Of a stretch of 64,000 bases of DNA, positions 23,013-57,466 are shown piece after piece (the stretch's first letter is position 1; each line of letters starts with the position of its first letter). A model generated the notes under the pieces. The model worked only from the letters and a program-made list of their open reading frames with translations. It was not told the DNA's origin and ran no database searches. This DNA comes from Candidatus Gottesmanbacteria bacterium (GTDB taxonomy: Bacteria > Patescibacteriota > Microgenomatia > JAMCYU01). A program made the position numbers and the translations under genes. The DNA lies in NCBI GenBank assembly GCA_043801155.1, contig JAZDMI010000021.1:2683-66682 (forward strand). The letters run 5' to 3'.

Positions 23013-23028
23013 ATCCCCACACTAATTT
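23013..23028. repeat. left arm of a 16-bp perfect inverted repeat bracketing the GIY-YIG ORF
   Basis: ATCCCCACACTAATTT at 23013-23028; reverse complement at 23298-23313. Confidence 0.8.
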
Positions 23029-23031
23029 CCT

Positions 23032-23289
23032 ATGTTTTATGTATACATTTTAAAAAGCAAAAAAGATGGAAATTTATACACAGGATCAACCAATGATTTA
23101 AAACGCCGTATTGAAGAACATAATTCAGGTTTAGTTTATTCGACGAAAAACCGAAAGCCATTTAAGTTAATATACTATGAAGCATATAGTGATGAAAGTG
23201 ATGCTAGAAATAGAGAGCACAATTTAAAGTTAAGAGCAAAAGCCCTAGGTCAATTAAAAAGAAGGATAAAGGAAAGTCTATCTAAATAA
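23032..23289 (+). CDS. GIY-YIG nuclease superfamily protein (YhbQ/UPF0213-like)
   Basis: 'FYVYILKSKKDGNLYTGSTNDLKRRIEEHNSG' canonical GIY-YIG N-terminus. Confidence 0.8.
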   Translation: MFYVYILKSKKDGNLYTGSTNDLKRRIEEHNSGLVYSTKNRKPFKLIYYEAYSDESDARNREHNLKLRAKALGQLKRRIKESLSK

Positions 23290-23297
23290 TATAAATA

Positions 23298-23313
23298 TAA
23301 TTAGTGTGGGGAT
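23298..23313. repeat. right arm of the 16-bp inverted repeat
   Basis: AAATTAGTGTGGGGAT. Confidence 0.8.
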
Positions 23314-23315
23314 AA

Positions 23316-23663
23316 ATGTCTGATATACAAAAATTAACCCAGCAAATTCTAAAATTTCGCAATAAAAGGGATTGGAAGCATTTCCATTATCCTAAGGACA
23401 TGGCCATTTCTTTGGCACTGGAGGCGGCCGAGGTTCTGGAACATTTTCAATGGAAAACCCAGGAAGAAGTTGAAGCGTATCTGAAGACGCATAAAACTCA
23501 TATCGCTGACGAACTGGCCGATGTTTTGTGGTGGGTGCTATTAATGAATCATGATTTGAATATTGATGTGATGAGGGCTTTCGATAAAAAATTAAAAATC
23601 AACGAAGAAAAATATCCGGTTGATAAAGCCAAGGGTACACATAAAAAATATACCGAGTTGTAA
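23316..23663 (+). CDS. MazG-like nucleotide pyrophosphohydrolase
   Basis: Two EExxE/D-like helices ('EAAEVLEHFQWK', 'ELADVLWWVLLM'). Confidence 0.6.
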   Translation: MSDIQKLTQQILKFRNKRDWKHFHYPKDMAISLALEAAEVLEHFQWKTQEEVEAYLKTHKTHIADELADVLWWVLLMNHDLNIDVMRAFDKKLKINEEKYPVDKAKGTHKKYTEL

Positions 23664-23761
23664 GATGATATCTTTTATTTCTCAATAAATACTCTGACTT
23701 TAACTTCAATATTTGACCTCGGTGTTAAAATAGTAATTATTAGAATTATTAGGAGGCATAT

Positions 23762-23956
23762 ATGAGATATGAAAATAATTGTATGCATCCTGCCATTGTT
23801 TATATTCCGGATCTTAGGCCAGGGTCATATGATGCTAATGGTTTAATGGTTGGGTCACTGAAACATATTCCAAAAGAAAAAATTCAAAAGACAGATGTTT
23901 CAGCTAAATATAGACGAATAGGGCCTCCGATTCGTATTGTTGCCAAAGGGTATTAA
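23762..23956 (+). CDS. hypothetical small protein
   Basis: SD 'aggaggcatatATG'; no recognisable motif. Confidence 0.35.
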   Translation: MRYENNCMHPAIVYIPDLRPGSYDANGLMVGSLKHIPKEKIQKTDVSAKYRRIGPPIRIVAKGY

Positions 23957-23983
23957 ATTATTAATTTTCAATGTCGGCAACAT

Positions 23984-24358
23984 CTACTCTTTGTTTTTTT
24001 CTAATTCGTCTTTAATTTGCGGAGCGATATTATCCAAGAAAATCTGATCAACAAGTTCTTCGGTTATATGAGCTTCTCTTGGCCCAAAATGCTGCATAAA
24101 AACATGATGTTGCCCTATTTTATCCGGACTTAATTGTATTTGACAATAAGTATTGGGGAAGCTGCGGTGGATAAAATTACAAATGATTGTTCCACTTTTA
24201 AGCATAACTGTTTCCCATACAGAAATTTGATTTGGTTTCAAATCTTTATGTTTTGGAACTGGAATATCCTCTCCGACGAGCAGATAAACATCAGGCCAAT
24301 CTAAAGGATTGTACTCATTAAGAGAAATTGGTTGTCTTTCTTGTTTAGAGTTATTCAT
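23984..24358 (-). CDS. hypothetical protein
   Basis: ORF preceded on its own strand by a copy of the duplicated promoter/start module (24381-24454). Confidence 0.45.
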   Translation of the reverse strand: MNNSKQERQPISLNEYNPLDWPDVYLLVGEDIPVPKHKDLKPNQISVWETVMLKSGTIICNFIHRSFPNTYCQIQLSPDKIGQHHVFMQHFGPREAHITEELVDQIFLDNIAPQIKDELEKNKE

Positions 24359-24380
24359 ATTTAAACTTGTTCTCGAGCTT

Positions 24381-24454
24381 CAGGATTTATTGACATAAGA
24401 AAGATATTCTACACATTCAAGTTATAATATACAAATCCTGACTAATTCCCACAT
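24381..24454 (-). repeat. copy 1 of an approximately 75-nt promoter plus start-codon module (reading on the minus strand: TTGTAT, 17 nt, TAGAAT ... ATGTCAATAAATCCTGAA, then a stop after 11 codons)
   Basis: About 85% identical to 25968-26041. Confidence 0.7.
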
Positions 24455-24550
24455 CGGTATTCTACCGAAACGGCTTTCCATATAAATGTGCCATTTCTGA
24501 GTGAGACACACTATGATAAAATGGGAACAATAACGGAAAGAAATTAACAC

Positions 24551-25057
24551 ATGTCTAAAACAAAAACAAATGAAATTGTTTATGCATTTATAGATAGCCA
24601 GAATCTCAATTTAGGAGTCAGGAGTCAAAATTGGATTTTAGATTTTGACCGTTTTCGTGTTTATTTAAAAGAAAAGTACGGAACAAAGAAAGCATTTTTG
24701 TTTATAGGTTATGTTGAAGGCAATCAAAGCTTATACACATATTTACAAAAATCCGATTATATATGCATATTTAAGCCTACGTTGGAACTTAATAAAAATA
24801 AAAAAGTAAGAATAAAAGGTAATGTTGATGCTGAATTAGTGCTTCATTCGATGATAGAGTATCCCAATTATGATAAGGCTATAGTTGTTTCCGGTGATGG
24901 AGACTTTCATTGTTTGGTGGAGTATTTAAAGGAGAAAAATAAGCTATTGAAAATAATTGTTCCAAATAGAAAATATTCTTCCCTGCTTAGAGAATTTAGT
25001 AACTATATAGTTAATATAGGGTTGATGCGAAGCAAGTTAGAATTGAGAAAGAAATGA
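24551..25057 (+). CDS. NYN-domain (LabA-like, PIN-related) putative RNase
   Basis: 'VYAFIDSQNL...FLFIGY...VVSGDGDFHCLVEYL' NYN signature. Confidence 0.65.
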   Translation: MSKTKTNEIVYAFIDSQNLNLGVRSQNWILDFDRFRVYLKEKYGTKKAFLFIGYVEGNQSLYTYLQKSDYICIFKPTLELNKNKKVRIKGNVDAELVLHSMIEYPNYDKAIVVSGDGDFHCLVEYLKEKNKLLKIIVPNRKYSSLLREFSNYIVNIGLMRSKLELRKK

Positions 25058-25198
25058 AAAGAGAGGCATTCCCTCGGGACGAAACCCTTTGGTAGTCCTC
25101 TCATCGTGATAAAAACATTATACTAAATTTACCTCACTACTGTCAAATACTGTATAGTCTCAGAGGGAAAAAGCATTTTTCTACTTAATGTTTAAAGC

Positions 25199-25570
25199 TT
25201 ATAATTTGGGGAAAATTCCCGAGCTCATCACTTCAATAGCTCTAAGAATAGCTTCCCGGGATTCTTTAGTAGGTTGCACGTCGTCAATAATTGAATCATT
25301 TAGTTTGTATTTTGGCAATAATCTTCTGGCCGCGGCAATAAATTGTGTCTCGAATTCCATTGTCATTTCTCTATTAGGAACACTTTCGAAACCCGGAGAA
25401 TTAAGTATTTCCAGATATGTTTTTGCAGTTCTGACATTACCTTTCAGAGCATCTTGATCTAAAAGAAGCGTAGAACTTCCCCAAGGATCCCTTTCTAATA
25501 ACTTTTGGGCGACGACCCGATCATAAACTTCTGCACGTATATTTTTAAATGTTTCACTGGCATTTGACAT
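25199..25570 (-). CDS. hypothetical small protein, paralogue A of the tandem pair
   Basis: About 40% identity to 25620..25982 ('DPxxxSxLxLDQxAL...YLEILNSxGxExxPxR...RLxPKYxL'); start placed at the ATG (MSNASE) homologous to the MSINPE/MAINPE starts. Confidence 0.5.
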   Translation of the reverse strand: MSNASETFKNIRAEVYDRVVAQKLLERDPWGSSTLLLDQDALKGNVRTAKTYLEILNSPGFESVPNREMTMEFETQFIAAARRLLPKYKLNDSIIDDVQPTKESREAILRAIEVMSSGIFPKL

Positions 25571-25619
25571 AAGAGGCACATTCTACCTTATTTAGGAAAA
25601 AAAGTATTCCCCTTTAAAT

Positions 25620-25982
25620 TTATTTTTGATTATTAGCTATATATAGAAAAACACCTGCCCGGCAAATTTGGTCTGGTTTGATTTTTTCTAAATAATCCGG
25701 CTTAAGTCCGTATTTTGGTATTAATCTCGAAACGGCATCAATTAAAGATGTCTCACGTTTTAAAAAATCTGCCCGATCAGGAAAGTTCTCATAGCCGGAT
25801 GAATTTAAAATTTCGATAATAGCTTTTGATACCATAACGTGTTCGATTAAGGCAAACTGGTCTAGGATAAGAGAACTTCTATTACAAGGATCCGGAACAA
25901 GGACTGATCTCGCCAGGTAAATATCAGTCATGATCTCAGGTGTTAAACCTAGTTGTTCTAGAGTTTCAGGATTTATTGCCAT
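25620..25982 (-). CDS. hypothetical small protein, paralogue B
   Basis: See paralogue A; its start codon lies inside repeat copy 2. Confidence 0.5.
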   Translation of the reverse strand: MAINPETLEQLGLTPEIMTDIYLARSVLVPDPCNRSSLILDQFALIEHVMVSKAIIEILNSSGYENFPDRADFLKRETSLIDAVSRLIPKYGLKPDYLEKIKPDQICRAGVFLYIANNQK

Positions 25983-26041
25983 AAGAGAGATATTCTACAT
26001 ATTTGAGTTATAATATACAAATTCTGCCAAATTCCCATCTC
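25968..26041 (-). repeat. copy 2 of the promoter plus start module (TTGTAT, 17 nt, TAGAAT ... ATGGCAATAAATCCTGAA = MAINPE start of 25620..25982)
   Basis: Aligns base-by-base with 24381-24454. Confidence 0.7.
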
Positions 26042-26151
26042 TAAATTTATCTATGTCTCGGATAATAACTCATTAAAATGTATAGGCCAGCCACGTACAG
26101 TCGCCGAAATCCCGTTAATTAGACCCATATTACGGTTATATTAACGGTATA

Positions 26152-26183
26152 TTGACAAAATATCGTTAATATGTTAACATATT
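26152..26183 (+). promoter_or_regulatory. Fic promoter with overlapping 16-bp perfect palindrome (candidate operator); near-leaderless start
   Basis: TTGACA(26152), 17 nt, TAACAT; palindrome AATATGTTAACATATT 26168-26183 abuts the GTG/ATG start; CGTTAAT half-site repeats at about 26112, 26143, 26164 and 26195. Confidence 0.45.
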
Positions 26184-27056
26184 GTGATGAGATTAACGCG
26201 GTTACAGGTGATTTCTGAACTGTTTGCCCAGTACCAGACAAAAAAAATAAACAAAGAATCTCTTCTTTCTATGGTCGATGATGTGGAAATTGCAGAGAGG
26301 GTCTACAACTCCAATGCCATAGAAAACTCGACACTCACCTTGCCCGAAACGGAAAAAATCCTGCTTCAGCTTGAAGTGAATAGGCATATATCGCTTAGAG
26401 AAGTTTTTGAGGCAAAAAATTTAGCCCAAGTCTACAACTATATTAAAAATACTGCCCCTCAAAAACCACTTTCCCTAGATATGATTTTATTACTTCATAA
26501 AATCCTGCTTACCAATATCCGTGATGAAGTTGCAGGACAGTTTCGTACGGGAAACGAAATGGTGCGGGTAGGAAATCACATCGGCATACCCTCGGAATTT
26601 ATAAGTCAAAGGATTCAAGAAATGCTCGTTCAATATAATTCAGACATGGAAATTTCCTTTATTCATAAAATTGGCCGTTTACATGCGGAGTTTGAAAGTA
26701 TTCACCCTTTTATTGACGGAAATGGCAGGATCGGACGAGTTCTTAATAACTATTTACTTATCCGTGAAGGATTTCCTCCGATTATCGTTAGAAATAAAGA
26801 TAAAGAAACTTATTATGATGCCCTGCGTTCATATGACACTTCGCATAATTTTAAACCAATGATGCGCATAGTTGAGTTAGCTGTTTTAGAATCTTTTCAT
26901 AAACGTCTGGCTTACCTTGAGGGACAGCGGATAATTCCTCTTACTGAATATGCGGCTACTCAAAAAAGATCTTTCCATACTCTTTTAAATTCAAGCCGTC
27001 GTCAAACTATTCCTGCTTTTCGCGAGAAAGGCGTCTGGAAAATCGGAGTAAAATAG
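26184..27056 (+). CDS. Fic/Doc family protein, class II-like with N-terminal inhibitory motif
   Basis: 'HPFIDGNGRIGR' Fic active-site motif; N-terminal 'SNAIEN' fits the (S/T)xxxE(G/N) autoinhibitory motif. Confidence 0.85.
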   Translation: MMRLTRLQVISELFAQYQTKKINKESLLSMVDDVEIAERVYNSNAIENSTLTLPETEKILLQLEVNRHISLREVFEAKNLAQVYNYIKNTAPQKPLSLDMILLLHKILLTNIRDEVAGQFRTGNEMVRVGNHIGIPSEFISQRIQEMLVQYNSDMEISFIHKIGRLHAEFESIHPFIDGNGRIGRVLNNYLLIREGFPPIIVRNKDKETYYDALRSYDTSHNFKPMMRIVELAVLESFHKRLAYLEGQRIIPLTEYAATQKRSFHTLLNSSRRQTIPAFREKGVWKIGVK

Positions 27057-27065
27057 GAGAAAATC

Positions 27066-27104
27066 AAAAAAGTCAAAAGAGAGGAAAGAGGAGAGAGAAA
27101 AATT
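27066..27104 (+). repeat. GA-rich leader repeat, copy 1 (upstream of the GNAT gene)
   Basis: aaaaagtcaaaagagaggaaagaggagagagaaaaattt; near-identical copy at 27584-27623. Confidence 0.6.
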
Positions 27105-27106
27105 TA

Positions 27107-27577
27107 ATGAAAATAAATAAACAAATAAAAATCGAAAAACTTACCGAGAAGAGGTTTAATGAAGCGGTTAATTTGGTTTTGGTCGCCAACCTTGATACGC
27201 GGGAAGAAATTGAACATCACCTAAAACATCTGGATGCCCATTATATTGCCCTTGATAATGATAAAATTGTCGGAGTTATCGGTTGGTATCAGGATAATGT
27301 TCATTATGCCAATGAGGCTATGGGTGATAAATTTCCCGGAGAAGAGGCCTACTGGGTGGGATTTTTTACCACTGATAAAAATTACCGGAGGCAGGGAATT
27401 GGTTTTGCCCTGCTTCAAAAATTGGAGCAGGTAATAAAAGAAAAAGGAGAGGATAAAATTTGGGTATCCTCGGTGCCGGAAACAAAAGACTATTATCAAA
27501 GACAAGGATTTGAATTAGTTTTAATGGGATATATCAACGGCAACCAAAAATGTTTTATGGTTAAAAAACTTCAGTAA
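27107..27577 (+). CDS. GNAT family N-acetyltransferase
   Basis: 'YRRQGIGFALL' acetyl-CoA binding motif A. Confidence 0.7.
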   Translation: MKINKQIKIEKLTEKRFNEAVNLVLVANLDTREEIEHHLKHLDAHYIALDNDKIVGVIGWYQDNVHYANEAMGDKFPGEEAYWVGFFTTDKNYRRQGIGFALLQKLEQVIKEKGEDKIWVSSVPETKDYYQRQGFELVLMGYINGNQKCFMVKKLQ

Positions 27578-27583
27578 AAATTA

Positions 27584-27623
27584 AAAAAGTCAGAAGAGAG
27601 AGGAAAGAAGAGAGAGGAAAATT
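27584..27623 (+). repeat. GA-rich leader repeat, copy 2 (upstream of hsdM)
   Basis: aaaaaagtcagaagagagaggaaagaagagagaggaaaatt. Confidence 0.6.
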
Positions 27624-29099
27624 ATGTTTGAACAATCATTTAAAAATATTGATGATATTCTTCACCGGGATGCCGGATGCGCCACGGAATTAGATTATAT
27701 AGAACAAACTTCATGGATTCTATTCTTGAAATACCTTGATGATTTAGAGGAAACAAAAAGGAAAGAAGCGGTTTTAAAAAATAGACAATATGAATATATT
27801 ATTGCTCCTGAATTTCGCTGGAGCGCTTGGGCGGAACCAAAAACGAAAGATGGCAAATTAGATATGAATAAGGCGTTAACCGGAGACGATCTAAGAGACT
27901 TTGTAAATTTAAAACTTTTTCCATATCTTAAGAAATTTAAAATCGACAATAACGAGAATCAAACAACTATTGAATATAAAATTGGAGAAATTTTCAGTGA
28001 GCTAAAAAACAGGATTGAAAGCGGATACAGACTTCGTGAAATTCTTAACATTGTAGATACGATGCATTTTCGAACCGATAGCGATAAACACGAACTCTCA
28101 CATCTTTATGAAGCTAAAATTAAGAACATGGGAAATGCCGGACGAAACGGCGGAGAATATTACACTCCTCGTCCGCTTATTAAAACGATAGTTAAGGTGG
28201 TAATCCCAAAGATTGGCGATACTATATATGATGGAGCCTGCGGATCTGCCGGATTTCTAGTAGAGTCTTTTGATTATCTTAAACAAAGTAAAGAATTATC
28301 TACCTCAGAATCCGTAAAGCTACAAAATAATACTTTTTACGGTAAGGAAATAAAATCACTTGCATATATTATCGGTGTTATGAATATGATTCTTCATGGT
28401 ATTGAAGCGCCGAATATTCTCCATACAAATACGCTTGCTCAAAACATCAATGATATCGAGGAAAAAGATCGGGTTGACGTAATCCTTACGAATCCGCCAT
28501 TTGGTGCAGGAATAGGTCGGGAAATTCAGCAAAATTTTCCGATAAAAACCGGCGAGACGGCATATCTTTTCCTCCAACACTTTATCAAAATGCTCAAAGC
28601 CGGAGGAAAAGCCGGAGTGGTGATTAAAAATACTTTTCTTTCTAATACTGATAACGCATCCGCTTCGCTTCGTAAACGTCTTCTTGAGAGTTGTAATCTT
28701 CACACCGTGCTTGATTTGCCTGGCGGCGTCTTTACGGGAGCAGGTGTAAAAACCGTGGTATTGTTTTTTGAAAAAGGCTCGCCAACCAAAAAAGTATGGT
28801 TCTATCAGTTAAACCTTGACCGCAATCTAGGCAAAGGTAATCCCTTAAGCGAAGCGGATCTATCAGAATTCGTCGAACTGCAAAAAACCAAAGCAGGTAG
28901 CAAAAATTCTTGGAGCGTAGACATAAAAGATATTAATCAAACAACATTTGATTTATCGGTAAAGAATCCAAACAAAGGGAGAGAAGTAACCCTACGCGAA
29001 CCGAAAGAGATTTTGGAGGGAATGAGGAAGCTAGACAAGGAAAGTGAAAATACATTTAAGATTATTAAAAACATATTAAATACTGGAATAAATGAATAA
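27624..29099 (+). CDS. hsdM: type I restriction-modification system, N6-adenine DNA methyltransferase subunit
   Basis: 'LTNPPFGAG' motif IV, 'YDGACGSAGFL' motif I, HsdM N-terminal domain. Confidence 0.9.
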   Translation: MFEQSFKNIDDILHRDAGCATELDYIEQTSWILFLKYLDDLEETKRKEAVLKNRQYEYIIAPEFRWSAWAEPKTKDGKLDMNKALTGDDLRDFVNLKLFPYLKKFKIDNNENQTTIEYKIGEIFSELKNRIESGYRLREILNIVDTMHFRTDSDKHELSHLYEAKIKNMGNAGRNGGEYYTPRPLIKTIVKVVIPKIGDTIYDGACGSAGFLVESFDYLKQSKELSTSESVKLQNNTFYGKEIKSLAYIIGVMNMILHGIEAPNILHTNTLAQNINDIEEKDRVDVILTNPPFGAGIGREIQQNFPIKTGETAYLFLQHFIKMLKAGGKAGVVIKNTFLSNTDNASASLRKRLLESCNLHTVLDLPGGVFTGAGVKTVVLFFEKGSPTKKVWFYQLNLDRNLGKGNPLSEADLSEFVELQKTKAGSKNSWSVDIKDINQTTFDLSVKNPNKGREVTLREPKEILEGMRKLDKESENTFKIIKNILNTGINE

Positions 29100-29730
29100 T
29101 TTATTAGCCTTGTTAGAGAAATATCAGACCCAAAATATTATCGCCGTCATAGCTTTAATATTGGCTTATTTAGCGTACAGAAAATCGGTTATTGATGAGT
29201 ATAGGAGTTGGTTGGATCTGGCAAAATCTTTCCAACACGAATTGAATTACGCAAAATATTGGATAGGAAATAGTTATGAAAAGATGATGAGTATAGATTG
29301 GTCGAATCCCTCCAGATTTGTTTATCCTCTTACCGCCGAAGCCGCGAAAGCGTTAATTTGGAAAGGACATCCGCCAAAGAGAATATTCCCAGATGATTTT
29401 TTTGATAAATTAGCTATATATAACGAACGTATTCAGGCATTTAACCATTTTTTAATGATTCAAGGAATCAATTATGTAGTGGCGGAAGTTGATAATAAAA
29501 ATGAAAAAATTTCAGAAAAAGCAAAGCATATTAATTATATCATCCATAATGATCTTATAGGTAGCCAGGATAATTATCACTTACACAATCTTTATAATTA
29601 TTTTAGTTGTCAATTGAAAATGATTGAAAAAGCAGATCTTTTGCTGATTCCATGGTATTTTAAATATCCTGAACGAATAGTTCTTGCTACTATTTTTATT
29701 TATATTATAGTTGATTATTTTATTCAGTGA
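29092..29730 (+). CDS. hypothetical membrane-associated protein embedded between hsdM and hsdS
   Basis: Start overlaps the hsdM stop and stop overlaps the hsdS start (translational coupling); N- and C-terminal hydrophobic helices; no known motif. Confidence 0.55.
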   Translation: MNNLLALLEKYQTQNIIAVIALILAYLAYRKSVIDEYRSWLDLAKSFQHELNYAKYWIGNSYEKMMSIDWSNPSRFVYPLTAEAAKALIWKGHPPKRIFPDDFFDKLAIYNERIQAFNHFLMIQGINYVVAEVDNKNEKISEKAKHINYIIHNDLIGSQDNYHLHNLYNYFSCQLKMIEKADLLLIPWYFKYPERIVLATIFIYIIVDYFIQ

Positions 29731-30884: not shown

Positions 30885-30886
30885 TT

Positions 30887-31606
30887 ATGAAATATATAAA
30901 AAAGCTTAATATGGTTTGTTTTAACTTACTGGAACTGAAGACGCTATATAAGACTGACAAAGTAATAAAAATTCTTATAGAAGCAAATAAAACAAGGTGT
31001 AATATCGTTAATTCATCTAAAGAACAATCTAAAAAGATCGTAGATTCAGTCGTGAAAGGAGATTTAAAACAAAAGGAGGAAATTGAAATATTCTCGGCGT
31101 TAAGCTTATGTGCCTTATTTTTCGAGAATGATAGTTTTATAGGTTTCGTTTTGAAGGACGGCTATGATGTAGGAAAAAACCCAATACAAACATTAGAAGG
31201 TTTGAAAAAGGCTGCGAAAGAAGATACTCTTACTGATTTTGCAATTATCACCAAAAGTGGAATGCGAGAATTTCAGCTAAAACAATTTTATAGACAAAAA
31301 CTGGAGACGGAAGACCTTTTTAACTTTATAAAAGAAAAAATTGAACATTATGGTGGTAATTTTGGTACCACTGCTTTGTTATTCTCGGTTAGAGGTGATG
31401 GAATAGGACCTTGTCAAAGCAATATTTCTTTTAAAGAAATTCACGAGAGGCTTTGCAAACTTAATTTAGACAGAAATGGATTAATTTTGATTTGGTATAA
31501 TGATGGCAACAAAAAACAGGTGATAATTGAAGTTTATCCTGATTTATCGGCATGCCAAAAAGAAACAGGTATTCACGATCAAACAAAAAATACCCTATAT
31601 AATTAG
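30887..31606 (+). CDS. hypothetical protein embedded between hsdS and hsdR (same position as PrrC-type genes, but no P-loop)
   Basis: 3-nt spacing from hsdS and 11 nt before hsdR; no Walker A or other recognisable motif. Confidence 0.55.
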   Translation: MKYIKKLNMVCFNLLELKTLYKTDKVIKILIEANKTRCNIVNSSKEQSKKIVDSVVKGDLKQKEEIEIFSALSLCALFFENDSFIGFVLKDGYDVGKNPIQTLEGLKKAAKEDTLTDFAIITKSGMREFQLKQFYRQKLETEDLFNFIKEKIEHYGGNFGTTALLFSVRGDGIGPCQSNISFKEIHERLCKLNLDRNGLILIWYNDGNKKQVIIEVYPDLSACQKETGIHDQTKNTLYN

Positions 31607-48886: not shown

Positions 48887-48919
48887 TATAACATTTTTTG
48901 ATAAAATACTTATATAATT

Positions 48920-50308: not shown

Positions 50309-50344
50309 AAACGCTGCTTAAGATATTTTTAATTTATAAAATAG

Positions 50345-50878
50345 TTACGAGGTTGGTTCGGGGGGTAAAAATTCCTCACCACTGGAATCTGAAGATGTAA
50401 CATATTCTCCCGGTTTAAGCCATTGGATATAAGTACAACCGGTAGCAACTCTTTTAGCGCTATCCCAACCGGCCGTCTCACACTTTTTCATTTTCTTGCC
50501 GTTAGCAGTAGTATAAAGAACTAATTTTTGCCCGCACTTTGGGCAATCCTCATCAAGTTTCTCGGTGGTACCATTTATCCACTCAATATAGTCGCAACCC
50601 TCGGCTTTTCTAGTTTCCTTATTCCAAACATTAGTTGAGCATTTTTTCATTTTCTTGCCAAACCGGGTAACTACCAAAAGAAGTGGAGAACCGCACTTCG
50701 GACATTTTTCCTCAAGAGTTTGCGGTTCTACCGCCAGCCACTTAACAAAAGTACACCCTTCATTTTGATGGGTTTCCTTATTCCAGCTGCCCTTTGAGCA
50801 ACGCTGAAGTTTTCTGCCGGTTGGTGTTTCAATAATATCGGTTAATTTGGCTCCGCATTTCGGGCATACATCATCCAT
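50345..50878 (-). CDS. triple zinc-ribbon protein resembling topoisomerase-I/YrdD-type C4 ribbons
   Basis: Three tandem units of about 55 aa, 'CPKCG..L......G.K...C.......KET....GC.Y(I/V)W'. Confidence 0.45.
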   Translation of the reverse strand: MDDVCPKCGAKLTDIIETPTGRKLQRCSKGSWNKETHQNEGCTFVKWLAVEPQTLEEKCPKCGSPLLLVVTRFGKKMKKCSTNVWNKETRKAEGCDYIEWINGTTEKLDEDCPKCGQKLVLYTTANGKKMKKCETAGWDSAKRVATGCTYIQWLKPGEYVTSSDSSGEEFLPPEPTS

Positions 50879-50973
50879 ATAGAAAATAGTATATCAGAAA
50901 AATTAAAAATAATCTTGAGCTATTTTGGAAAATTTTGCTTTTTATATTAAAACTTTACTATAATAAAGTTAAT

Positions 50974-51390
50974 ATGGTCGAAGGTGACAGAGATGTCCTT
51001 TCGAAAATAAAGACCAGAGTTAAACATATTGGTCAGGCTTTTTTACCTGATAAAGAGGAATTCATACCCTTATCTGATATTAATGCCGATACCGTATGCA
51101 AGACAATCCGGAAGTGTCTAGGCACGCCAATTCAAAAAAGGTTTATCGGAAATGCTTGGGCAAATCCTTTCTCGGTGGTTGATGTCCTTGTCCATATGGG
51201 TTATTTAGATCCCTGGGTGGAGTCTGATTATTTAGAGAAGTTTCCCGAAGAATATCGGGCAACCCGTAAAGCTCTGAATGACCTGGTTGCGAATAAGATA
51301 TTAAAGCCTGTACAATTAGAAGATAAAGATAGTCATCGCGAGGATTTATATTATCAAGTAGTAAATAGTCAAGATCTGCAAAATAATTAA
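50974..51390 (+). CDS. hypothetical protein
   Basis: ORF; internal ATG 50974 preferred. Confidence 0.35.
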   Translation: MVEGDRDVLSKIKTRVKHIGQAFLPDKEEFIPLSDINADTVCKTIRKCLGTPIQKRFIGNAWANPFSVVDVLVHMGYLDPWVESDYLEKFPEEYRATRKALNDLVANKILKPVQLEDKDSHREDLYYQVVNSQDLQNN

Positions 51391-51404
51391 TCTATTAAAA
51401 ATTT

Positions 51405-52292
51405 ATGGATCAAGAAAACCAGACAACTATTAATTCTCAACCAGTACCAGTCGCCCCCCAACAAAAAACTAATTTATGGATGATTGTTTCGCTAGTTTTG
51501 ATTACCGCCATACTTGTTGGCGGAGGCGTATTTTTTTTGATGAACTCAACTAAAAAAGAACCAACCGGTTCTTTAAGCCAGGCTGAACCAAAAGCAACAT
51601 CCCTGCCAATTGTTTCTACTCAACCTACATTAACGCCGGTTGCGATTCCCAGTCTAATATCAATTGATAATACCTGGAATAAATATACCAATTCTGTCTT
51701 GGGTTTTTCTCATAAGGTTTTAAAAAATATGATTGAACCATACGGTCTTTGCCCCTTTAGCGATACTAATGGTGATCATTCATATCGGCCAAAACCAAGT
51801 AGCGTCCCGGTTAAGATTTTTGAAGAAGGAATAAATGTTTATATCGCCAGCGAATATTTTTATAAATTGACAGGAGAAACCAATGAAAATGGCAGGTCAT
51901 TTTTTTCTGGTTGCGATAAAATCACCAACTCGGTTAGTCTGATTAAAGATATGAAAAACTATTTTTCACCGGCCTGGAGAATCGTGGTTAAAAATATAGC
52001 CAATGATAGTGAGTTAGATCAATTTCTGAAAGACAGGTATGGTGTAGGTTGCAGCTTGGGCGAAAAAAAACCGGCTAAACAAAATGGGGTTTTTGATATT
52101 CATATCAAAGGAGATGGATTAGATTTAGGGGAAACCAAATGCCCGATAAATTATATAACTGTCGTTAAATACTATCCGGAAAAGCAAAAAGTGGCTGCTT
52201 GGGATATTGGTCAAAGTTGCAGTTTTACCACTGACTTAAATTATCAAAACTGTCTTGATCAGGAAATGACTGATAGTTTTACCTTCGAATAA
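51405..52292 (+). CDS. hypothetical secreted/membrane-anchored Cys-containing protein
   Basis: TM helix at about residues 25-45, Pro/Thr-rich linker. Confidence 0.4.
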   Translation: MDQENQTTINSQPVPVAPQQKTNLWMIVSLVLITAILVGGGVFFLMNSTKKEPTGSLSQAEPKATSLPIVSTQPTLTPVAIPSLISIDNTWNKYTNSVLGFSHKVLKNMIEPYGLCPFSDTNGDHSYRPKPSSVPVKIFEEGINVYIASEYFYKLTGETNENGRSFFSGCDKITNSVSLIKDMKNYFSPAWRIVVKNIANDSELDQFLKDRYGVGCSLGEKKPAKQNGVFDIHIKGDGLDLGETKCPINYITVVKYYPEKQKVAAWDIGQSCSFTTDLNYQNCLDQEMTDSFTFE

Positions 52293-52318
52293 GGTATTTT
52301 TAAAGTAAAATCTTTAGA

Positions 52319-52696
52319 TTAATCTTCAAATTCTTCAGATTCTGGAGATTCTGAAAAGTGAAGTATCTGATTACATACCCTGACAAAATTAAGTTGCTCG
52401 TTTAGTTCTTCTTTATCATAACCATTACCAATACCGGTATGAATTTTGTGGATAAGATTCCATACCGAGGATTTTTGATAACCTCGTTGCAATAATTCAA
52501 GGTCATCTGATTTTGCTGTTCTACATAATACCCTAGATAGTGCATGCTCTACAGCTGTACTCGTATCAGGAATAACCCGCGAGCCTATAGCTTTTTGTTC
52601 TTTGGTAATAAATCGTTGAACAAATCCTTCGGCTTTTTCCCTTGAAAAATACGGGGTTCGATAATCAATTCCAAACTCTGCGCCCTTATTATTCAT
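52319..52696 (-). CDS. hypothetical protein
   Basis: ORF, no motif. Confidence 0.35.
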   Translation of the reverse strand: MNNKGAEFGIDYRTPYFSREKAEGFVQRFITKEQKAIGSRVIPDTSTAVEHALSRVLCRTAKSDDLELLQRGYQKSSVWNLIHKIHTGIGNGYDKEELNEQLNFVRVCNQILHFSESPESEEFED

Positions 52697-52731
52697 ATAA
52701 ATATATATCCTATAATATTATGGTTAGATTG

Positions 52732-53760
52732 TCAAGAGGCGCTGATTTGCTCCTTAATGAAGTTACGTAGTTCCTGCCAGTCGTCGGATTTGGGAACAAG
52801 GATAAACTGGCCTTGGGAATTTTTCCCGGACTTTAAAATATTGGCATCTGACGGAACTATTTGGCTGATCTTATATTCACTTGGGTTAACAATTAAAGAA
52901 ATAATTGTCTTGGTAGTAGCTAAGTCCAAATCGGTTTTAACGAATTTAACTAAACTGTTAAAAATCTTATCCACGTTTTTTAGGGCATTTAATGTTAACA
53001 ACTTATCTTTAATACCGATTAAAATTGTTTGTTGTCTGGCTCCCCGGCCAAAATCCGAGCCATCCTGAGCCGAATGACGCGAGCGGGCATATTTTAAAGC
53101 CATAATTCCGTCAATATGCGTTTTACCGGTATCAAAGTGAAGATGTTCGTAGCGGCAGGTAAATTGTTTTTCCAATTCAAATCCGCTTAGGGTGGCCGAA
53201 AGATTAGCGACTTCTTCCGGTGATTTTCCACAGGTTTCCAGTTCCTTGCCGGCCACCGGATAAAAATAATCGTCAAACGTCTTGGCAATATTTATATCAA
53301 TTCCGCCCAGAGAGTCAATCAGGCGGATAAAGTTTGGGAAATCAACAACTATAGCTTGCCCGATTGATAATCCGGTAATTGAGCCAACCGTTTCTTTGGC
53401 TAACGCAAATCCGCCCTTAGAGTAGGCTTCATTAATTTTCATATTATTGACATACATATCGCGGGGAATAAAAATAAGCGCGGCTTTTTTATTAATAGTA
53501 TTTATATGAACAATCATCTCAGAATCAGCTAAGATACCACCTTCATGTCCGGCTCCGCCCTGACCTAAAAGCAAGATATTATATTCTCCTTGATTTGCAG
53601 GTTTGGGGGTTATATTAGAAACTGAATTAATGGTGGTAGTTTGCTCAAGCGGGCTGATTATCTTATTGGTTTTTCTTGAGAGTAAAAAGTATGTCAAAAC
53701 ACTAATAACTATTAGTACTAGGACTATTATCGGAATGATAATTAAAACTGGTTTCTTCAT
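52732..53760 (-). CDS. LytR-CpsA-Psr (LCP) family cell-envelope phosphotransferase
   Basis: N-terminal TM; 'ILLLGQGG...DSEMIVHINT...LIFIPRDMYV' LCP core. Confidence 0.8.
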   Translation of the reverse strand: MKKPVLIIIPIIVLVLIVISVLTYFLLSRKTNKIISPLEQTTTINSVSNITPKPANQGEYNILLLGQGGAGHEGGILADSEMIVHINTINKKAALIFIPRDMYVNNMKINEAYSKGGFALAKETVGSITGLSIGQAIVVDFPNFIRLIDSLGGIDINIAKTFDDYFYPVAGKELETCGKSPEEVANLSATLSGFELEKQFTCRYEHLHFDTGKTHIDGIMALKYARSRHSAQDGSDFGRGARQQTILIGIKDKLLTLNALKNVDKIFNSLVKFVKTDLDLATTKTIISLIVNPSEYKISQIVPSDANILKSGKNSQGQFILVPKSDDWQELRNFIKEQISAS

Positions 53761-53837
53761 TTTAATATTATCGCATTATTATGATAAACTGCCAAGTGAA
53801 TAAATTATTGACTTAATATACATAAATCATTAAGATA

Positions 53838-54440
53838 TTGCTGATGAAAAAATATTCAATTTTTATAATTCTCGTTATTTTATTATTTGCTATAATACTA
53901 ATTAAGATGCAAAATTCAAATAATCAAAATAACCAACCTCCCATAGTAACACCAACCTCCGCACCGGAAAGCCTAAGCCCGACGAGTTCTGCGTCAGTCT
54001 CAGCATCTGCGGTGACAACTACGGAAACTCAAGCATTAATTAAAACCTCAAAAGGCGATATCAATCTAAGTTTATATCCGGACGCAGCGCCAAAAACAGT
54101 AGCCAATTTTATTAATAAAGCCAACAGCGGTGACTATAAAAATCTAACTTTCCACCGGGTTGAAGATTGGGTTATCCAGGGAGGCGATCCTTTAGGAAAT
54201 GGTACCGGCGGCGGAGAAATTGCTACCGAAATTAGTAATAAACCATTTGTCATTGGTTCTTTGGGAGTTGCCCGAGGGCAAGATATCAAAATCTCCAACG
54301 ACAGCCAGTTTTTTATTACCAAAACCGAGGCTTCGTGGCTAAACGGCCAATATACCAACTTCGGGCTGGTGATATCAGGAATGGAAGTAGTTAATCAAAT
54401 TCAAGTCGGCGACAAAATTTTAGACATTATTATTAAATAA
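53838..54440 (+). CDS. cyclophilin-type peptidyl-prolyl cis-trans isomerase, secreted/membrane-anchored
   Basis: 'FHRVEDWVIQGGDPLGNGTGG' cyclophilin signature. Confidence 0.85.
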   Translation: MLMKKYSIFIILVILLFAIILIKMQNSNNQNNQPPIVTPTSAPESLSPTSSASVSASAVTTTETQALIKTSKGDINLSLYPDAAPKTVANFINKANSGDYKNLTFHRVEDWVIQGGDPLGNGTGGGEIATEISNKPFVIGSLGVARGQDIKISNDSQFFITKTEASWLNGQYTNFGLVISGMEVVNQIQVGDKILDIIIK

Positions 54441-54482
54441 GAAAAATCTTTTTTCTTACCTCATTGTAGTATAATCTAGTGC

Positions 54483-54923
54483 ATGCCACCCGAACAAGAA
54501 AAAATCCTCTATCATGGTACTACTTATGGCCGTATTAAAAGGGCTGATGCTTTATATGGTTATATTAGACCGCAAGAACCAGGCATGTCAGGAAATATGA
54601 CGGATGATTATAAGACGGCAGCAGTCTTTGCTCGTCTTGCCTCTTGTACGGAGAATGGTGATATGCCGATTATACTACATATAAAACTATCAAACTCAGA
54701 AATTGTCGAACTTGGGAAAATGACACATACCAACAAAAATACTTTTGGATTAACTAAAGCGATATCTGCAGAGTTAATTCCTGAAGATTTTTTTAGCAAG
54801 ACACCTTTTTTAAAAAAACCAATTGCTTTACAGGATGAAGCTGATGGGTATGTAACCTTTTATATTATTGATAGATCAAAAATTATTAATTCCACCATAG
54901 TCCATGATGAGAATATTACTTAG
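54483..54923 (+). CDS. hypothetical protein
   Basis: ORF, no motif. Confidence 0.35.
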   Translation: MPPEQEKILYHGTTYGRIKRADALYGYIRPQEPGMSGNMTDDYKTAAVFARLASCTENGDMPIILHIKLSNSEIVELGKMTHTNKNTFGLTKAISAELIPEDFFSKTPFLKKPIALQDEADGYVTFYIIDRSKIINSTIVHDENIT

Positions 54924-55881
54924 ATTACTGCTTATACTTATAATTCTTATTGCCCTTGTCGGTGGTGTCTCCTTTTATTTTTTATCTCCAGTTGAAAATA
55001 TTAATAAACCAGTCATTTTTACTTTACAAAAAGACGATAATAAACTTGATGCGGCAATAAAACTTAAAGAACAAAAATTAATAAGAAATGTGGCGGTATT
55101 TTCTTTTCTGCTGACGTATTTTGCGGCTGATAAAAAAATACTGCCGGGTGGATATAGGTTAAATTCCAATATGAATGCTTGGCAGGTTATGGAAAAGATT
55201 ACCAAAAAACCTGATTTAGTCTGGGTGGTTATCCGGGAGGGTTTACGCAAAGAACAAGTGGCGATTGTTTTAGCCAAAGCCCTAGGTTGGACAGATAAAC
55301 AAAGAAGTTTATGGCTTGACAACTATACCAGTTCTAATCCTGAATATATTGAAGGTGTTTATTTCCCCGATACCTACCTTATTCCGGTTGATGAAAACGG
55401 CGCTGATATTGTTCGGAGGTTTATCAATAATTTTAATGCCAAAATGGCACCGCTTTTTCCTGAATTTGCTAAAAAGGACATTCTCTGGACTACCGGTATC
55501 AAAATTGCCTCATTAATCCAGCGTGAAGCCGGGGGATCGGCTGATATGCCGATTATTGCCGGAGTGATTTGGAATCGGCTTAATAAGGGAATGAAGCTGG
55601 AAATTGATGCTACGATGCAGTATACCCGGGGTGAACAAAACGATAACTGGTGGGGACCAATAGATCTGGAAGAGAAATTAACGGATTCGCCATATAACAC
55701 TTATCTATACAAAGGTTTACCACCGACGCCGATTTGTAATCCTGGTTTGGAGGCTATTAAAGCAGCCTTAAATCCGGCGGAAACCGACTGTATATTTTAT
55801 TTGCATGATGCTCAAAAACAGATTCATTGTGCCAAAACCTACGAAGAACACAAGAGAAATATCATAGAGTTTCTTAATTAA
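54904..55881 (+). CDS. mltG: MltG/YceG family endolytic transglycosylase, second paralogue
   Basis: 'ASLIQREAGG', 'YNTYLYKGLPPTPICNPG'; same architecture as 5173..6141. Confidence 0.75.
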   Translation: MMRILLRLLLILIILIALVGGVSFYFLSPVENINKPVIFTLQKDDNKLDAAIKLKEQKLIRNVAVFSFLLTYFAADKKILPGGYRLNSNMNAWQVMEKITKKPDLVWVVIREGLRKEQVAIVLAKALGWTDKQRSLWLDNYTSSNPEYIEGVYFPDTYLIPVDENGADIVRRFINNFNAKMAPLFPEFAKKDILWTTGIKIASLIQREAGGSADMPIIAGVIWNRLNKGMKLEIDATMQYTRGEQNDNWWGPIDLEEKLTDSPYNTYLYKGLPPTPICNPGLEAIKAALNPAETDCIFYLHDAQKQIHCAKTYEEHKRNIIEFLN

Positions 55882-57306
55882 ATGACTTCGTCATATATGG
55901 TAAAATGGGTGTTTGTGAAAAGAGCTATTTTACTCAACCTTTTCCTTTTTGTTTTTGTTTTAAAGCCTGTCTTTGCTTTGGAAAACAATAAATTTGGAAT
56001 TCATATTATTCAGCCGGAAGATCTCCCCCGGGCGGCGGAGCTGGTTAACAGCAATAGCGGTGATTGGGGGTATGTAACAATTGTGATTGCGGATAATGAT
56101 AGGAATAAAGATAAATGGCAAAGTTTTTTTGATGACTGCCGGCAAAAGCATTTAATCCCGCTGGTCAGAATTGCGACACATCTGGAAAATGATATTTGGA
56201 GTAAACCTGAAGAAAATCAGATTAGTGAGTGGGCAAAGTTTCTTGATAGTCTTAATTGGCCGGTTAAAACCCAATATATCAGCATTTATAATGAACCGAA
56301 TCATAACAAAGAATGGGGAGGAAAGTCAGATCCGGTCGAATACGCGAAAATTTTGGATAAAGCGTTAACCATCTTTAAACAAAAAAACAGCAATTTTTAT
56401 ATTCTGAATGCCGGTTTTGATCAAGCTGCCGGTAATTCCCCGACGACTATTGACGAAGAATGGTATATTGCGCAAATGGAAAAAGAAGTCCCGGGTATTT
56501 TTAGCCGTTTAGATGGTTGGGTATCCCATTCTTATCCTAATCATGGTTTTATTGGAAAACCATGGGAGACTGGTCGGGCATCGGTTGCCGGTTACCAATG
56601 GGAACTGTCAATTCTAAAATCTCAGTTTGGCGTGACAAAAAACCTACCAATTTTTATTACCGAGACGGGTTGGCCGCATAGATTAGACAATAGGGTAAAG
56701 GGCATAGGGTATAGTTACTACGATGAAAAGTTAACGGCCGAGTATATAAAACAGGCGTTTGAAAATGTTTGGCTAGCTGATGATCAGGTCATAGCGGTAA
56801 CCCCTTTTATTTTAAATTATCCGGCGTATCCTTTCGAAAACTTTTCCTGGTTGGATAGTAGCGGGCAACCACTTTCTCAATACCAAGAGATTAAATCAAT
56901 TAAAAAAAATATTGGTCAACCGGAACAAAAACAAAGCTTTGCATTAATTAAGTCGCCTTTTCCTCCAATAGTTACCACGAACTTGGTTTTTAACGGCAAA
57001 GTGATATTAAAAAATACCGGTCAGTCAATATGGGGAGAAAAACCATTTATATTAAAGGCCTTTGCTCCCGGTTTAAAGTTATCTGATTTAATCTTGCCTT
57101 CCGGCCAGTTAGTTAAACCCGGGCAAAGAGCGGAACTGGATTTTACTTTGGAGACAGTTAATGTCGGCGGAGATTATGTTGCCGGCTGGCAAGGACTGAC
57201 ACCCTATGAAATTAAAGTTTTTGGTATTTGGGGGTTGACAGCATCGCCAAATACACCCTTAAATAACATCCTCGAAAATATTTTTGGTTTCTGGTTTAAT
57301 CTTTAA
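55882..57306 (+). CDS. secreted glycoside hydrolase-like protein (clan GH-A-like), paralogous in architecture to 48920..50308
   Basis: 'ISIYNEPNHNKEWGG' and 'FITETGWP' (candidate acid/base and nucleophile Glu). Confidence 0.45.
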   Translation: MTSSYMVKWVFVKRAILLNLFLFVFVLKPVFALENNKFGIHIIQPEDLPRAAELVNSNSGDWGYVTIVIADNDRNKDKWQSFFDDCRQKHLIPLVRIATHLENDIWSKPEENQISEWAKFLDSLNWPVKTQYISIYNEPNHNKEWGGKSDPVEYAKILDKALTIFKQKNSNFYILNAGFDQAAGNSPTTIDEEWYIAQMEKEVPGIFSRLDGWVSHSYPNHGFIGKPWETGRASVAGYQWELSILKSQFGVTKNLPIFITETGWPHRLDNRVKGIGYSYYDEKLTAEYIKQAFENVWLADDQVIAVTPFILNYPAYPFENFSWLDSSGQPLSQYQEIKSIKKNIGQPEQKQSFALIKSPFPPIVTTNLVFNGKVILKNTGQSIWGEKPFILKAFAPGLKLSDLILPSGQLVKPGQRAELDFTLETVNVGGDYVAGWQGLTPYEIKVFGIWGLTASPNTPLNNILENIFGFWFNL

Positions 57307-57312
57307 TACTAT

Positions 57313-57341
57313 TTGCATTTTTTGGGCTCTTGAATTATAAT
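57313..57341 (+). promoter_or_regulatory. promoter of the rplC-led ribosomal operon (TTGCAT, 17 nt, TATAAT)
   Basis: Perfect -10 hexamer; same TTTGCATTTTT -35 context as the 34-43 kb element family. Confidence 0.55.
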
Positions 57342-57362
57342 AAGTGAACTTTGATATGGAGG

Positions 57363-57452
57363 TGATTTCACCGACAAAAAGTTAGAATAGCGGACTGGCA
57401 CAACGTATTTAGTCTAGGTGCAGTCGGCACCTTTTTTTGTGCCTGAAATCAC
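57363..57452 (+). promoter_or_regulatory. structured leader with attenuator-like alternative hairpins upstream of rplC
   Basis: GTGATTTCA(57363)..TGAAATCAC(57444) long-range stem; GGTGC agtcg GCACC followed by T7, alternatively GGCAC ttttttt GTGCC. Confidence 0.45.
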
Positions 57453-57466
57453 TTAAACTAAAAAAT

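Follow-up and report, generated by a model that had tools for sequence, protein, structure and literature searches.

Within the 64,000-nt stretch of DNA analysed here (the window; part of contig JAZDMI010000021.1 of a Candidatus Gottesmanbacteria bacterium), the ribosomal protein genes rpsJ and rplC, both on the + strand, are separated by 34,454 nt containing about 45 open reading frames (ORFs) of at least 75 aa. An earlier note on this DNA, which placed the end of rpsJ at 23012 and the start of rplC at 57467 with ~34 kb in between, offered two readings, the insertion of an island into one of the most conserved operon junctions or a lineage-specific permanent split. The ORF listing and Pfam matches bear out the coordinates, and comparison with related genomes indicates that the separation is very probably an ancient split fixed across a clade rather than a recent island. 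The lineage-specific split is the right description of the frame of the interval: five other lineages of the clade carry the same anchors, that is, a gene for a MazG-like pyrophosphohydrolase beside rpsJ on the left and/or the u474 gene beside rplC on the right, and the outgroups are canonical.

Close relatives were found by homologue searches with u474, S10 and the DEAD helicase followed by genomic-context look-ups; L3-based scans of genomes and metagenome contigs returned no genus-level relative (best L3 identity 63–75%) and provided the outgroup picture only. S10 of the relatives with the same left context is 93, 92, 91 and 88% identical to that of the window. The closest of these (S10 93%, tuf 96%) holds its whole gap of 31,173 nt on one 602-kb contig, JBFOMW010000021.1, represented by loci L162, L174 and L161, of which L174 bridges the stretch between the other two; the gene order is rpsJ–MazG-like–DUF8173–small ORFs–methyltransferase (MTase)–MutH–SduA_C–SIR2–GmrSD–MTase on the left and ZnTop–DEAD–Obg–...–u51405–LytR–190–PPIase–YceG–PDDEXK–205–u474–rplC on the right. 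Three further loci (L167, L168 and L169; S10 91%) have a gap of 4.6 kb with the order rpsJ–MazG-like–LytR(−)–two or three ORFs–u474–rplC. The left side of the junction only is represented in L164, L165 and L166 (S10 92%; rpsJ–MazG-like–DUF8173–...–GNAT–EcoRI-type MTase–GmrSD/HNH–...–DEAD–Obg) and in L170 and L171 (S10 88%; rpsJ–SPW–MazG-like–DUF8173–...–u23984 homologue–MTase–PvuII-like–MTase–LexA–E2–E1), and the right side only in Microgenomates bacterium LiPW_16 (L176; u474 64%; YceG–PDDEXK–...–u474–rplC). Accordingly, the left junction, tuf–rpsJ–MazG-like, recurs in L162–L169, and in L170 and L171 with SPW as the one extra gene (MazG-like orthologues 74–78% identical); the right junction, u474–leader–rplC, recurs in L161, L167–L169, L176 and L177. 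By the test that the earlier note had set itself, a synteny comparison in which related genomes share the split, the rearrangement is ancestral, and an island confined to one strain is not the right description.

In a neighbour-joining tree of EF-G, EF-Tu and S10, the split genomes form one monophyletic clade with three sublineages, the identity of these proteins being ~89% within the clade and ~79% to the canonical outgroups L172, L011, L018 and L003; in L172 and its companion L173 (S10 86%), rpsJ adjoins rplC across a spacer of 134 nt. One sublineage has a gap of 4.6 kb, against 31.2 kb for the sister of the window and 34.5 kb for the window itself. A separate observation concerns L178 (7191–11428), a distant Microgenomates contig (S10 67%) with the order tuf–rpsJ–sigma70–u474 followed by non-ribosomal genes; given its presence on the rpsJ side there, the u474 family may have a link to the junction that is older than the clade.

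In Microgenomates, the premise of a junction among the most conserved breaks down. Scans with L3 across species-representative genomes and metagenome contigs yielded 160 loci, mostly from Microgenomates and then from Chloroflexota, onto which the window proteins were mapped; 128 of them hold both rpsJ and rplC. The spacer between the two genes is ≤400 nt in 99 loci, 401–1000 nt in 11 and >1 kb in 18, so that more than 400 nt have been inserted in 29 of the 128, with a maximum of 2.6 kb outside the split clade; six further loci extend ≥2.5 kb ahead of rplC yet lack rpsJ. The inserts are unrelated between loci (hypothetical secreted proteins, an AAA ATPase, an EamA-like membrane protein, TlyA/FtsJ-like methyltransferases and a metalloprotease-like protein). 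Because most spacers are short and the remainder contain unrelated inserts, adjacency of rpsJ and rplC is the ancestral state, yet the junction leaks. Only three junctions of the supercluster are often opened, namely rpsG|fusA (16/49 loci with >500 nt), fusA|tuf (21/59) and rpsJ|rplC; rpsL|rpsG and tuf|rpsJ are almost never opened, nor are the junctions from rplC to rplP, the exception being the relocation of rpsS in Roizmanbacteria. In the window and in 86 of 89 related loci, tuf is directly followed by rpsJ on the same strand. In the Roizmanbacteria-type loci L017, L021, L023, L054 and L063, rpsS has left its place between rplB and rplV and lies instead ~3.5 kb past rplP. The window itself shows a second permissive junction of the supercluster, rpsG and fusA being split by pilin-like(−), PGA_cap and P-type ATPase genes (14884–19028); this trio is conserved as a whole only in L162 (2138–6338), the ATPase alone is present in L164 (3997–6420) and L167, and L170 (2214–6507) carries DUF3160 and Memo/PGA_cap instead.

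No other non-coding DNA in the comparison is as well conserved as the 160 nt upstream of rplC. The promoter and structured leader that the earlier note had ascribed to rplC are supported and conserved, the leader in 25 loci and the promoter as a sequence prediction: sites of the same type precede the leader in L127, L085, L019, L070, L076, L112, L115, L093 and L108. The leader folds more stably than shuffled sequences (z = −2.84), and rplC of the window has no Shine–Dalgarno (SD) sequence of its own. Covariance models (R1/R2), based first on the clade and later on seven sequences, match exclusively directly upstream of rplC, be it in loci with insertions (L112, L115 and L076), in loci with an adjacent rpsJ or a spacer not exceeding ~400 nt (L127, L085, L019, L070 and L102) or in L108, where rpsJ ends just upstream of the promoter. 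In L127, for instance, the rpsJ stop lies at 9560, the promoter at 9576 and the leader at 9605–9730. The presence of a predicted promoter and leader of rplC even where rpsJ is adjacent is another respect in which the conserved-junction premise fails. In the seven-sequence alignment, which was fitted to the model and hence favours structure, pairing is seen in 89.7% of cells and two-sided change in six pairs, and none of 500 shuffles reaches the observed score. Pattern search combined with folding recovered the same geometry in 25 Microgenomates loci, with the SD-like motif followed by a GC hairpin, U5–8, 3–30 nt and the rplC AUG, usually without SD; the distance from motif to U-tract is 67–87 nt in 24 of the 25 and 125 nt in L067. 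The terminator stems covary between lineages (GGUGC/GCACC, GGCGC/GCGCC, GCGACU/AGUCGC, GUGCC/GGCAC, GCCCCG/CGGGGC and GGUAGCC/GGCUACC). Thus, a conserved structured element occupies the 5′ untranslated region of a ribosomal protein operon across lineages. Rfam contains no family matching at the gathering threshold anywhere in the window, and nothing meaningful for the leader at E-values up to 10.

Two further properties of the leader deserve mention. Pairing of the 5′ motif with the terminator is feasible, through GCCUCC in the 5′ arm and loop or through CACCUUU, and the mean duplex energy is −9.2 kcal/mol compared to −6.1 for shuffles, a signal that is weak in any single locus; pairing of the two as a competing structure is suggestive only. 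Besides, the AUG of the leader motif (window 57356–57385) opens an ORF of 6–9 codons (MEV...) in 22 of the 25 leaders and of 18 codons in L067 (the tabulation does not cover L161 and L167). Conservation is limited to the first three codons, is at the nucleotide level and falls on a perfect anti-SD complement. A split ribosome-binding site, in which the hairpin would bring the 5′ SD near the rplC AUG, was considered and rejected, ~35 nt still lying between the two in the window.

Collectively, these features suggest that rplC is transcriptionally autonomous in these organisms, in which case the rpsJ|rplC junction would be an operon boundary, fitting the str-linked position of rpsJ, and recurrent insertions there would be explained. 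In Microgenomates, rpsJ would be the last gene of a str-type unit (rpsL–rpsG–...–fusA–tuf–rpsJ), and the rplC...rpsH cluster would be expressed from its own promoter and attenuator-like leader; since this module lies directly upstream of rplC, DNA inserted upstream of it would leave the control of rplC intact. We propose, tentatively, that the module could be a hitherto undescribed autoregulatory attenuator of Microgenomates that senses L4 or free 30S subunits, and that it made rplC autonomous and turned the junction into a landing pad for core genes that relocated and for defence islands; this is possible rather than probable. Sensing of 30S might in that case proceed through the SD-like AUGGAGGUGA motif, which can pair with the terminator.

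An alternative, unlikely but deserving serious attention, is that the hairpin and U-tract are a mere terminator of the upstream unit, that AUGGAGGUGA is a chance occurrence or a translational feature and that there is no regulatory leader. The leader is read from sequence, the antiterminator duplex is weakly indicated per locus, and in L001 and L155 the motif starts 20–24 nt past the rpsJ stop. Against this reading, conserved −35/−10 elements lie upstream of the motif in the split clade, L127, L085, L108, L112 and L115, which would place the terminator inside the rplC transcript, and the constant geometry, the covarying stems and the confinement of covariance-model matches to rplC also speak against it.

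How the gap grew can be outlined in the framework of an ancient split at an operon boundary. At the stem of one Gottesmanbacteria clade, the MazG-like gene became fixed beside rpsJ, and LytR and u474 beside rplC. Once co-localization was no longer selected, the gap would have grown to 31–34 kb in two of the three sublineages by two routes, namely inward relocation of core genes (Obg, DEAD, cyclophilin and MltG, in the window also EngB and DegV) and turnover of defence and accessory genes at a hotspot just to the right of MazG-like/DUF8173/GNAT. EngB, being a core gene, implies that core genes moved into the interval as well. The Brandis model, by which selection for co-localization is relaxed once an operon boundary has received a small insertion and the separation then grows, is in line with this scenario; 67% of the changes in ribosomal operon clusters have been traced to gene insertions that relax selection for co-localization (Brandis, 2021; PMC8046335).

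A different course of events, which we hold to be improbable though by no means negligible, is that a gap of ~30 kb was already present in the clade ancestor through one rearrangement, such as transposition of a segment, and that the 4.6-kb form of L167–L169 is a secondary reduction. DEAD–Obg lies within the gap in two of the three sublineages, the DEAD gene of the small-gap lineage is located ~50 kb away in an unrelated context, and the tree is a near-trichotomy, all of which would fit such a history. Nevertheless, inserts in other Microgenomates are small (one to three genes), Obg, DEAD and ZnTop are ordered differently in the window and the sister lineage, suggesting piecemeal changes, and a small insertion is the first step expected under the Brandis model (PMC8046335). 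A single inversion, which cannot account for this difference in order, was also rejected as the cause of the split, given that both halves are on the same strand.

The compositional profile, which the earlier note had called for, divides the interval in agreement with the mapping of orthologues. Tetranucleotide distance to the flanks is 0.268 for 23–37.8 kb, 0.23–0.27 for 38–44 kb and 0.17–0.21 for 44–57 kb, compared to 0.179 for the flanks themselves, and the GC content is 0.30–0.35 in the atypical left segment versus 0.37–0.43 in the flanks. The left 14–21 kb are compositionally atypical, and the right 13 kb, from Obg to u474, are of native composition and syntenic with relatives: orthologues in the same gap of JBFOMW010000021.1 include ZnTop (84% identity), DEAD (83%), Obg (81%), PPIase (74%), YceG (73%), u474 (68%), LytR (63%) and u51405 (55%), a radical-SAM/B12 and GH10-like pair being inserted in the window only.

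That a single recent genomic or defence island of ~34 kb was horizontally acquired and inserted into an intact rpsJ–rplC operon is highly improbable: the defence-type genes, low GC content and atypical tetranucleotides of 23–37.8 kb, together with the adjacency of rpsJ and rplC in most Microgenomates, speak for it, but relatives with S10 identities as high as 88–93% are already split with the same anchors, the right 13 kb are syntenic and native, and neither an integrase or phage gene nor a tRNA or flanking direct repeat was found. Specifically, the window proteins have no Pfam matches to integrases, transposases, phage or conjugation proteins, no tRNA gene was found in the whole window (GC ~37%), and neither direct repeats flanking the interval nor att-like repeats were found. 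A prophage was also considered and rejected, since a PHROGs search of ten proteins of unknown function gave no match and a viral-contig scan with u694 revealed no viral relative. What stands of the island reading is the left part, ~23.7–37.5 kb and perhaps up to ~44 kb, which is variable, defence-rich, atypical and nested in the old split.

This left part has the hallmarks of a defence hotspot, that is, variable content between conserved core flanks, enrichment in defence genes and atypical composition. The defence-type genes of the window are the type I restriction–modification (R–M) system, Mrr, NYN, Fic (SoFic/PDC-S04) and the Cas4-like nuclease, and the cargo differs in the relatives, comprising MTase and MutH, SduA_C, SIR2 and GmrSD in L162/L174, EcoRI-MTase and GmrSD/HNH in L164, and PvuII-like R–M, LexA and E2/E1 in L170. 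In all four cases the cargo is positioned after MazG-like/DUF8173/GNAT and before DEAD/Obg. Because integrase, tRNA and att-like repeats are lacking, exchange of the cargo probably proceeds by homologous recombination via the conserved flanks rather than by a site-specific element.

Least credible of all is an assembly chimera, in which unrelated ...tuf–rpsJ and rplC... contigs were joined via accessory DNA: the source is a metagenome-assembled genome (MAG) with a window-specific middle that lacks a second assembly, and exact-sequence look-ups of window proteins, S10 among them, gave no match to the contig, but both junction types recur in independent NCBI assemblies (JBFOMW/JBFOMX/JBFOMZ/JBFOMY, JAMCYU, JAMCSI and VMEQ) and in Logan SRR25508698, SRR25508693 and SRR8863432, one relative spans the entire gap on a single contig, and shared orthologues are spread along the interval, on the left (MazG-like, u23984, u25199 and GNAT) and on the right (Obg, DEAD, ZnTop, u51405, LytR, PPIase, YceG and u474).

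Several points weigh against the account given here. The leader was detected in only ~25 of ~140 loci, and in L001, where the motif begins 24 nt past the rpsJ stop, a separate promoter would not fit. The limits of the operons, like the promoter and terminator, are predicted from sequence, and generic scans of 22.6–38 kb for sigma-70 promoters and terminators found no enrichment over shuffled sequence. The near-trichotomy of the three sublineages does not separate small-gap-first growth from large-gap-first reduction (L167/L168), homologous recombination as the mechanism of exchange is itself inferred, and the window-specific middle (23.7–44.3 kb) is seen in one assembly only.

The features of the window and the interval are collected in Table 1.

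Table 1. Features of the window (positions in window coordinates; (−) marks minus-strand genes within mixed groups)
Feature	Position	Strand	Basis and remarks
Sortase, ribose-1,5-bisphosphate-isomerase/RuBisCO fusion, AMP-phosphorylase-like gene, YceG paralogue			First genes of the window, in this order
rpoB, rpoC, rpsL, rpsG, pilin-like(−), PGA_cap, P-type ATPase	Upstream of fusA		ORF listing and Pfam
fusA	19122–21263		ORF listing and Pfam
tuf	21461–22654	+	ORF listing and Pfam
rpsJ	22704–23012	+	ORF listing and Pfam; last ribosomal gene of the rpsL...tuf–rpsJ unit
GIY-YIG cassette	23013–23313 (ORF 23032–23289)	+	Pfam PF01541; window-specific
MazG-like pyrophosphohydrolase	23316–23663	+	Pfam PF12643; left anchor conserved across the clade
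Semi-conserved small genes: u23984(−), u25199(−), u25620(−), NYN, Fic, GNAT	23984–27577	mixed	Pfam/PADLOC
NYN	24551–25057		Pfam
Fic (SoFic/PDC-S04-like)	26184–27056		Pfam/PADLOC
Type I R–M operon hsdM–orf–hsdS–orf–hsdR	27624–33972	+	Pfam; window-specific cargo
hsdM	27624–29099		PF02384/PF12161 (N6_Mtase/HsdM_N)
hsdS	29727–30884		PF01420 ×2 (Methylase_S)
hsdR	31618–33972		PF04851/PF08463 (ResIII/EcoEI_R_C)
Single-gene cassette row: u34131, Nudix, FtsK-gamma-like winged helix-turn-helix, Mrr_cat, DUF6498, PD-(D/E)XK, 71-aa ORF	34131–38931	+	Pfam, ORFs
Mrr_cat	35299–35814		Pfam
PD-(D/E)XK/Cas4-like nuclease	36647–37519		Pfam
71-aa ORF	37613–37828		ORF listing
DegV(−), u38972, u694(−), small ORFs, ArsM-type methyltransferase, u43271, EngB/YsxC	37872–44274	mixed	Pfam/NCBIfam
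EngB	43687–44274		Pfam
Core block: DUF192(−), Obg(−), DEAD, radical-SAM/B12, GH10-like, Zn-ribbon ×3(−), u50935, u51405	44271–57306	mixed	
Core block, continued: u52319(−), LytR(−), cyclophilin, u54483, YceG/MltG paralogue, u474	within 44271–57306	mixed	
Obg	44579–45520	−	Pfam
DEAD helicase	45842–47029		Pfam
Predicted rplC promoter, TTGCAT-N17-TATAAT	57313–57341	+	Invariant across the clade (alignment)
rplC leader	57343–57466	+	5′ SD-like motif, long hairpin, terminator-like hairpin, then 28 nt to AUG
SD-like motif AUGGAGGUGA	57356–57365	+	~15 nt downstream of predicted promoter
Terminator-like hairpin GGUGCAGUCGGCACC with U7	~57417–57438	+	U6–7 in the clade
rplC (ATG 57467) through rpsH	57467–63777	+	ORFs, Pfam L3, synteny with all loci

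All genes that the earlier note had named in the interval (type I R–M, Mrr-cat, Cas4-like, Fic, NYN, GIY-YIG, obg, engB and DEAD) were confirmed by Pfam; Pfam, PADLOC and NCBIfam added the MazG-like, GNAT, Nudix, DUF6498, DegV, ArsM-type methyltransferase, B12/radical-SAM enzyme, LytR, cyclophilin and second YceG/MltG genes. The GIY-YIG cassette, located directly after the rpsJ stop codon, is the latest visible insertion. It is delimited by a perfect 15-bp inverted repeat, ATCCCCACACTAATT / AATTAGTGTGGGGAT, and the gene occupies the entire rpsJ–MazG spacer, which in the relatives measures just 3–59 nt and in L164 is similar to the left arm of the inverted repeat. A small GIY-YIG gene of L175 (1724–2122) is also bracketed by an inverted repeat (13 nt, 85%), the repeats of both the window and L175 stop 0–2 nt from the start of the next gene, and a GIY-YIG homologue is found just upstream of rplC in L104; the gene with its inverted repeats may be a mobile cassette.

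Among the semi-conserved small genes, u23984 has a homologue (57%) in L170, and L164 carries homologues of u25199 (41%) and GNAT (82%) in the equivalent place. The 5′ regions of u23984, u25199 and u25620, none of which has a match in Pfam, PADLOC or PHROGs, contain an 85-nt direct repeat (24367–24451 and 25953–26037; 88% identical) and a third copy of 23 nt (25564–25586); u25199 and u25620 are paralogous to one another, and L164 has a homologue of them. GNAT is bracketed by a purine-rich direct repeat of 30 nt (27075–27104 and 27594–27623; 90% identical), the copies of which lie directly before the starts of GNAT and hsdM; in L164, the GNAT orthologue is followed by a different R–M system.

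The predicted HsdM, HsdS and HsdR are encoded together and constitute a type I R–M system, which is absent from the relatives, where other R–M and defence genes follow GNAT or DUF8173. Two ORFs of the operon, 29092–29730 between hsdM and hsdS and 30887–31606 between hsdS and hsdR, have no family match, and their ends overlap or abut those of their neighbours; HsdR contains a Cys-rich stretch of CPxC repeats ahead of the EcoEI_R_C domain. The cassette row that follows has the lowest GC content of the window (0.30–0.32), and the repeated promoter elements described there in the earlier note are real: the 29–32-nt motif TTGCMT-N17-TA(A/G)ACT occurs in eight copies between 34932 and 38931 (repeat families D1/D2/D4/D6 and a regular-expression search), located 10–22 nt before the starts of four cassettes (FtsK-gamma-like, Mrr, DUF6498 and PD-(D/E)XK), and a related site is found once, before rplC. 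The genes from DegV to EngB gave no tblastn match in L161–L176 and are seen in no gap of a relative.

In the core block, a stand-alone 177-aa protein (50345–50878, −) consists of three topoisomerase-I-type zinc ribbons and is 84% conserved within the gap of the sister. The window encodes two YceG/MltG paralogues (5173–6141 and 54904–55881), both full-length Pfam matches; YceG of L174 shares 73% identity with the second copy but 36% with the first, and the second copy belongs to the block preceding rplC. The uL3 protein (57467–57904) comprises only 145 aa, with the Pfam match covering the C-terminal half only; it is similarly short in the clade (141–145 aa) and in L001/L002/L004, and has 217 aa in L172. 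An internal deletion of uL3 has been reported in some members of the Candidate Phyla Radiation (CPR; PMC9297842). At the far left of the window, a 757-aa ORF (1428–4957) fuses an IF-2B-family domain of the ribose-1,5-bisphosphate isomerase type to the RuBisCO large subunit and is followed, with a 13-nt overlap, by the AMP-phosphorylase-like gene, making up the nucleoside-salvage set of CPR and archaea, here as a gene fusion.

These results recast a junction that is treated as near-invariant: in a large CPR group it probably marks the border of an operon and belongs to the three permissive sites of the supercluster. This affects binning and phylogenomics that assume a contiguous ribosomal block, as well as the reading of ‘islands’ in MAGs. 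The anchor-flanked hotspot (rpsJ–MazG-like...DEAD/Obg/LytR–u474–rplC) is a place to mine for defence systems in genomes of ~1 Mb, and the leader is a new candidate ribosomal protein leader for a phylum-level group without known ribosomal protein regulators.

In cyanobacteria, plastids and archaea, rps10 is linked to the str operon, apart from the rplC cluster. The arrangement described here is alike in that rpsJ directly follows tuf and the large ribosomal protein cluster begins at rplC with a predicted upstream control region of its own, but both parts lie on the same strand 4.6–34 kb apart, the arrangement has arisen inside one CPR clade with canonical nearest relatives, and the leader is unrelated in sequence to any Rfam family. 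It also departs from the S10 operon of the Escherichia coli type, given that rpsJ does not directly precede rplC and the 49-nt tuf–rpsJ spacer holds no Rfam leader. In E. coli, the S10 leader upstream of rpsJ is a transcription attenuator responsive to L4 and NusA, and its distribution is narrow (PMC3616713). The rplC leader resembles this element in its proximity to the predicted promoter and in its terminal hairpin and U-tract, close to the first gene of an L4-encoding operon, and differs in its position before rplC, in the lack of a sequence or structure match and in the 5′ SD-like motif. An L4 leader candidate before rplC has been proposed for Archaeoglobi only (Eckert and Weinberg, 2020; PMC7247131).

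As in the Brandis model (PMC8046335), a small boundary insertion, relaxed selection and wider separation appear to have followed one another, with inserted genes often native rather than foreign; however, the events described there fall between operons (rpoBC|str and str|S10), whereas the break here lies between rpsJ and rplC, inside the S10 operon of E. coli, and the gap also houses a defence hotspot. That hotspot parallels the core defence hotspots of Pseudomonas aeruginosa (PMC10250203) in its conserved core flanks, a different defence system in each relative and atypical composition, but has no integrase or other mobile-element marker, resides in a genome of ~1 Mb and is embedded in the ribosomal protein supercluster, 0.3–4 kb from rpsJ. 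The cassette row is reminiscent of integron cassette arrays, with short single-gene units each preceded by a similar 29–32-nt element; an integron-type array was nonetheless rejected, there being no intI, attI or attC and the repeats lying upstream of the ORFs and resembling −35/−10 promoters. Both the break of an operon cluster and the core-flanked defence hotspot belong to known kinds; the novelty is one of instances, namely this particular site, the gradation from 4.6 through 31 to 34 kb and the candidate leader.

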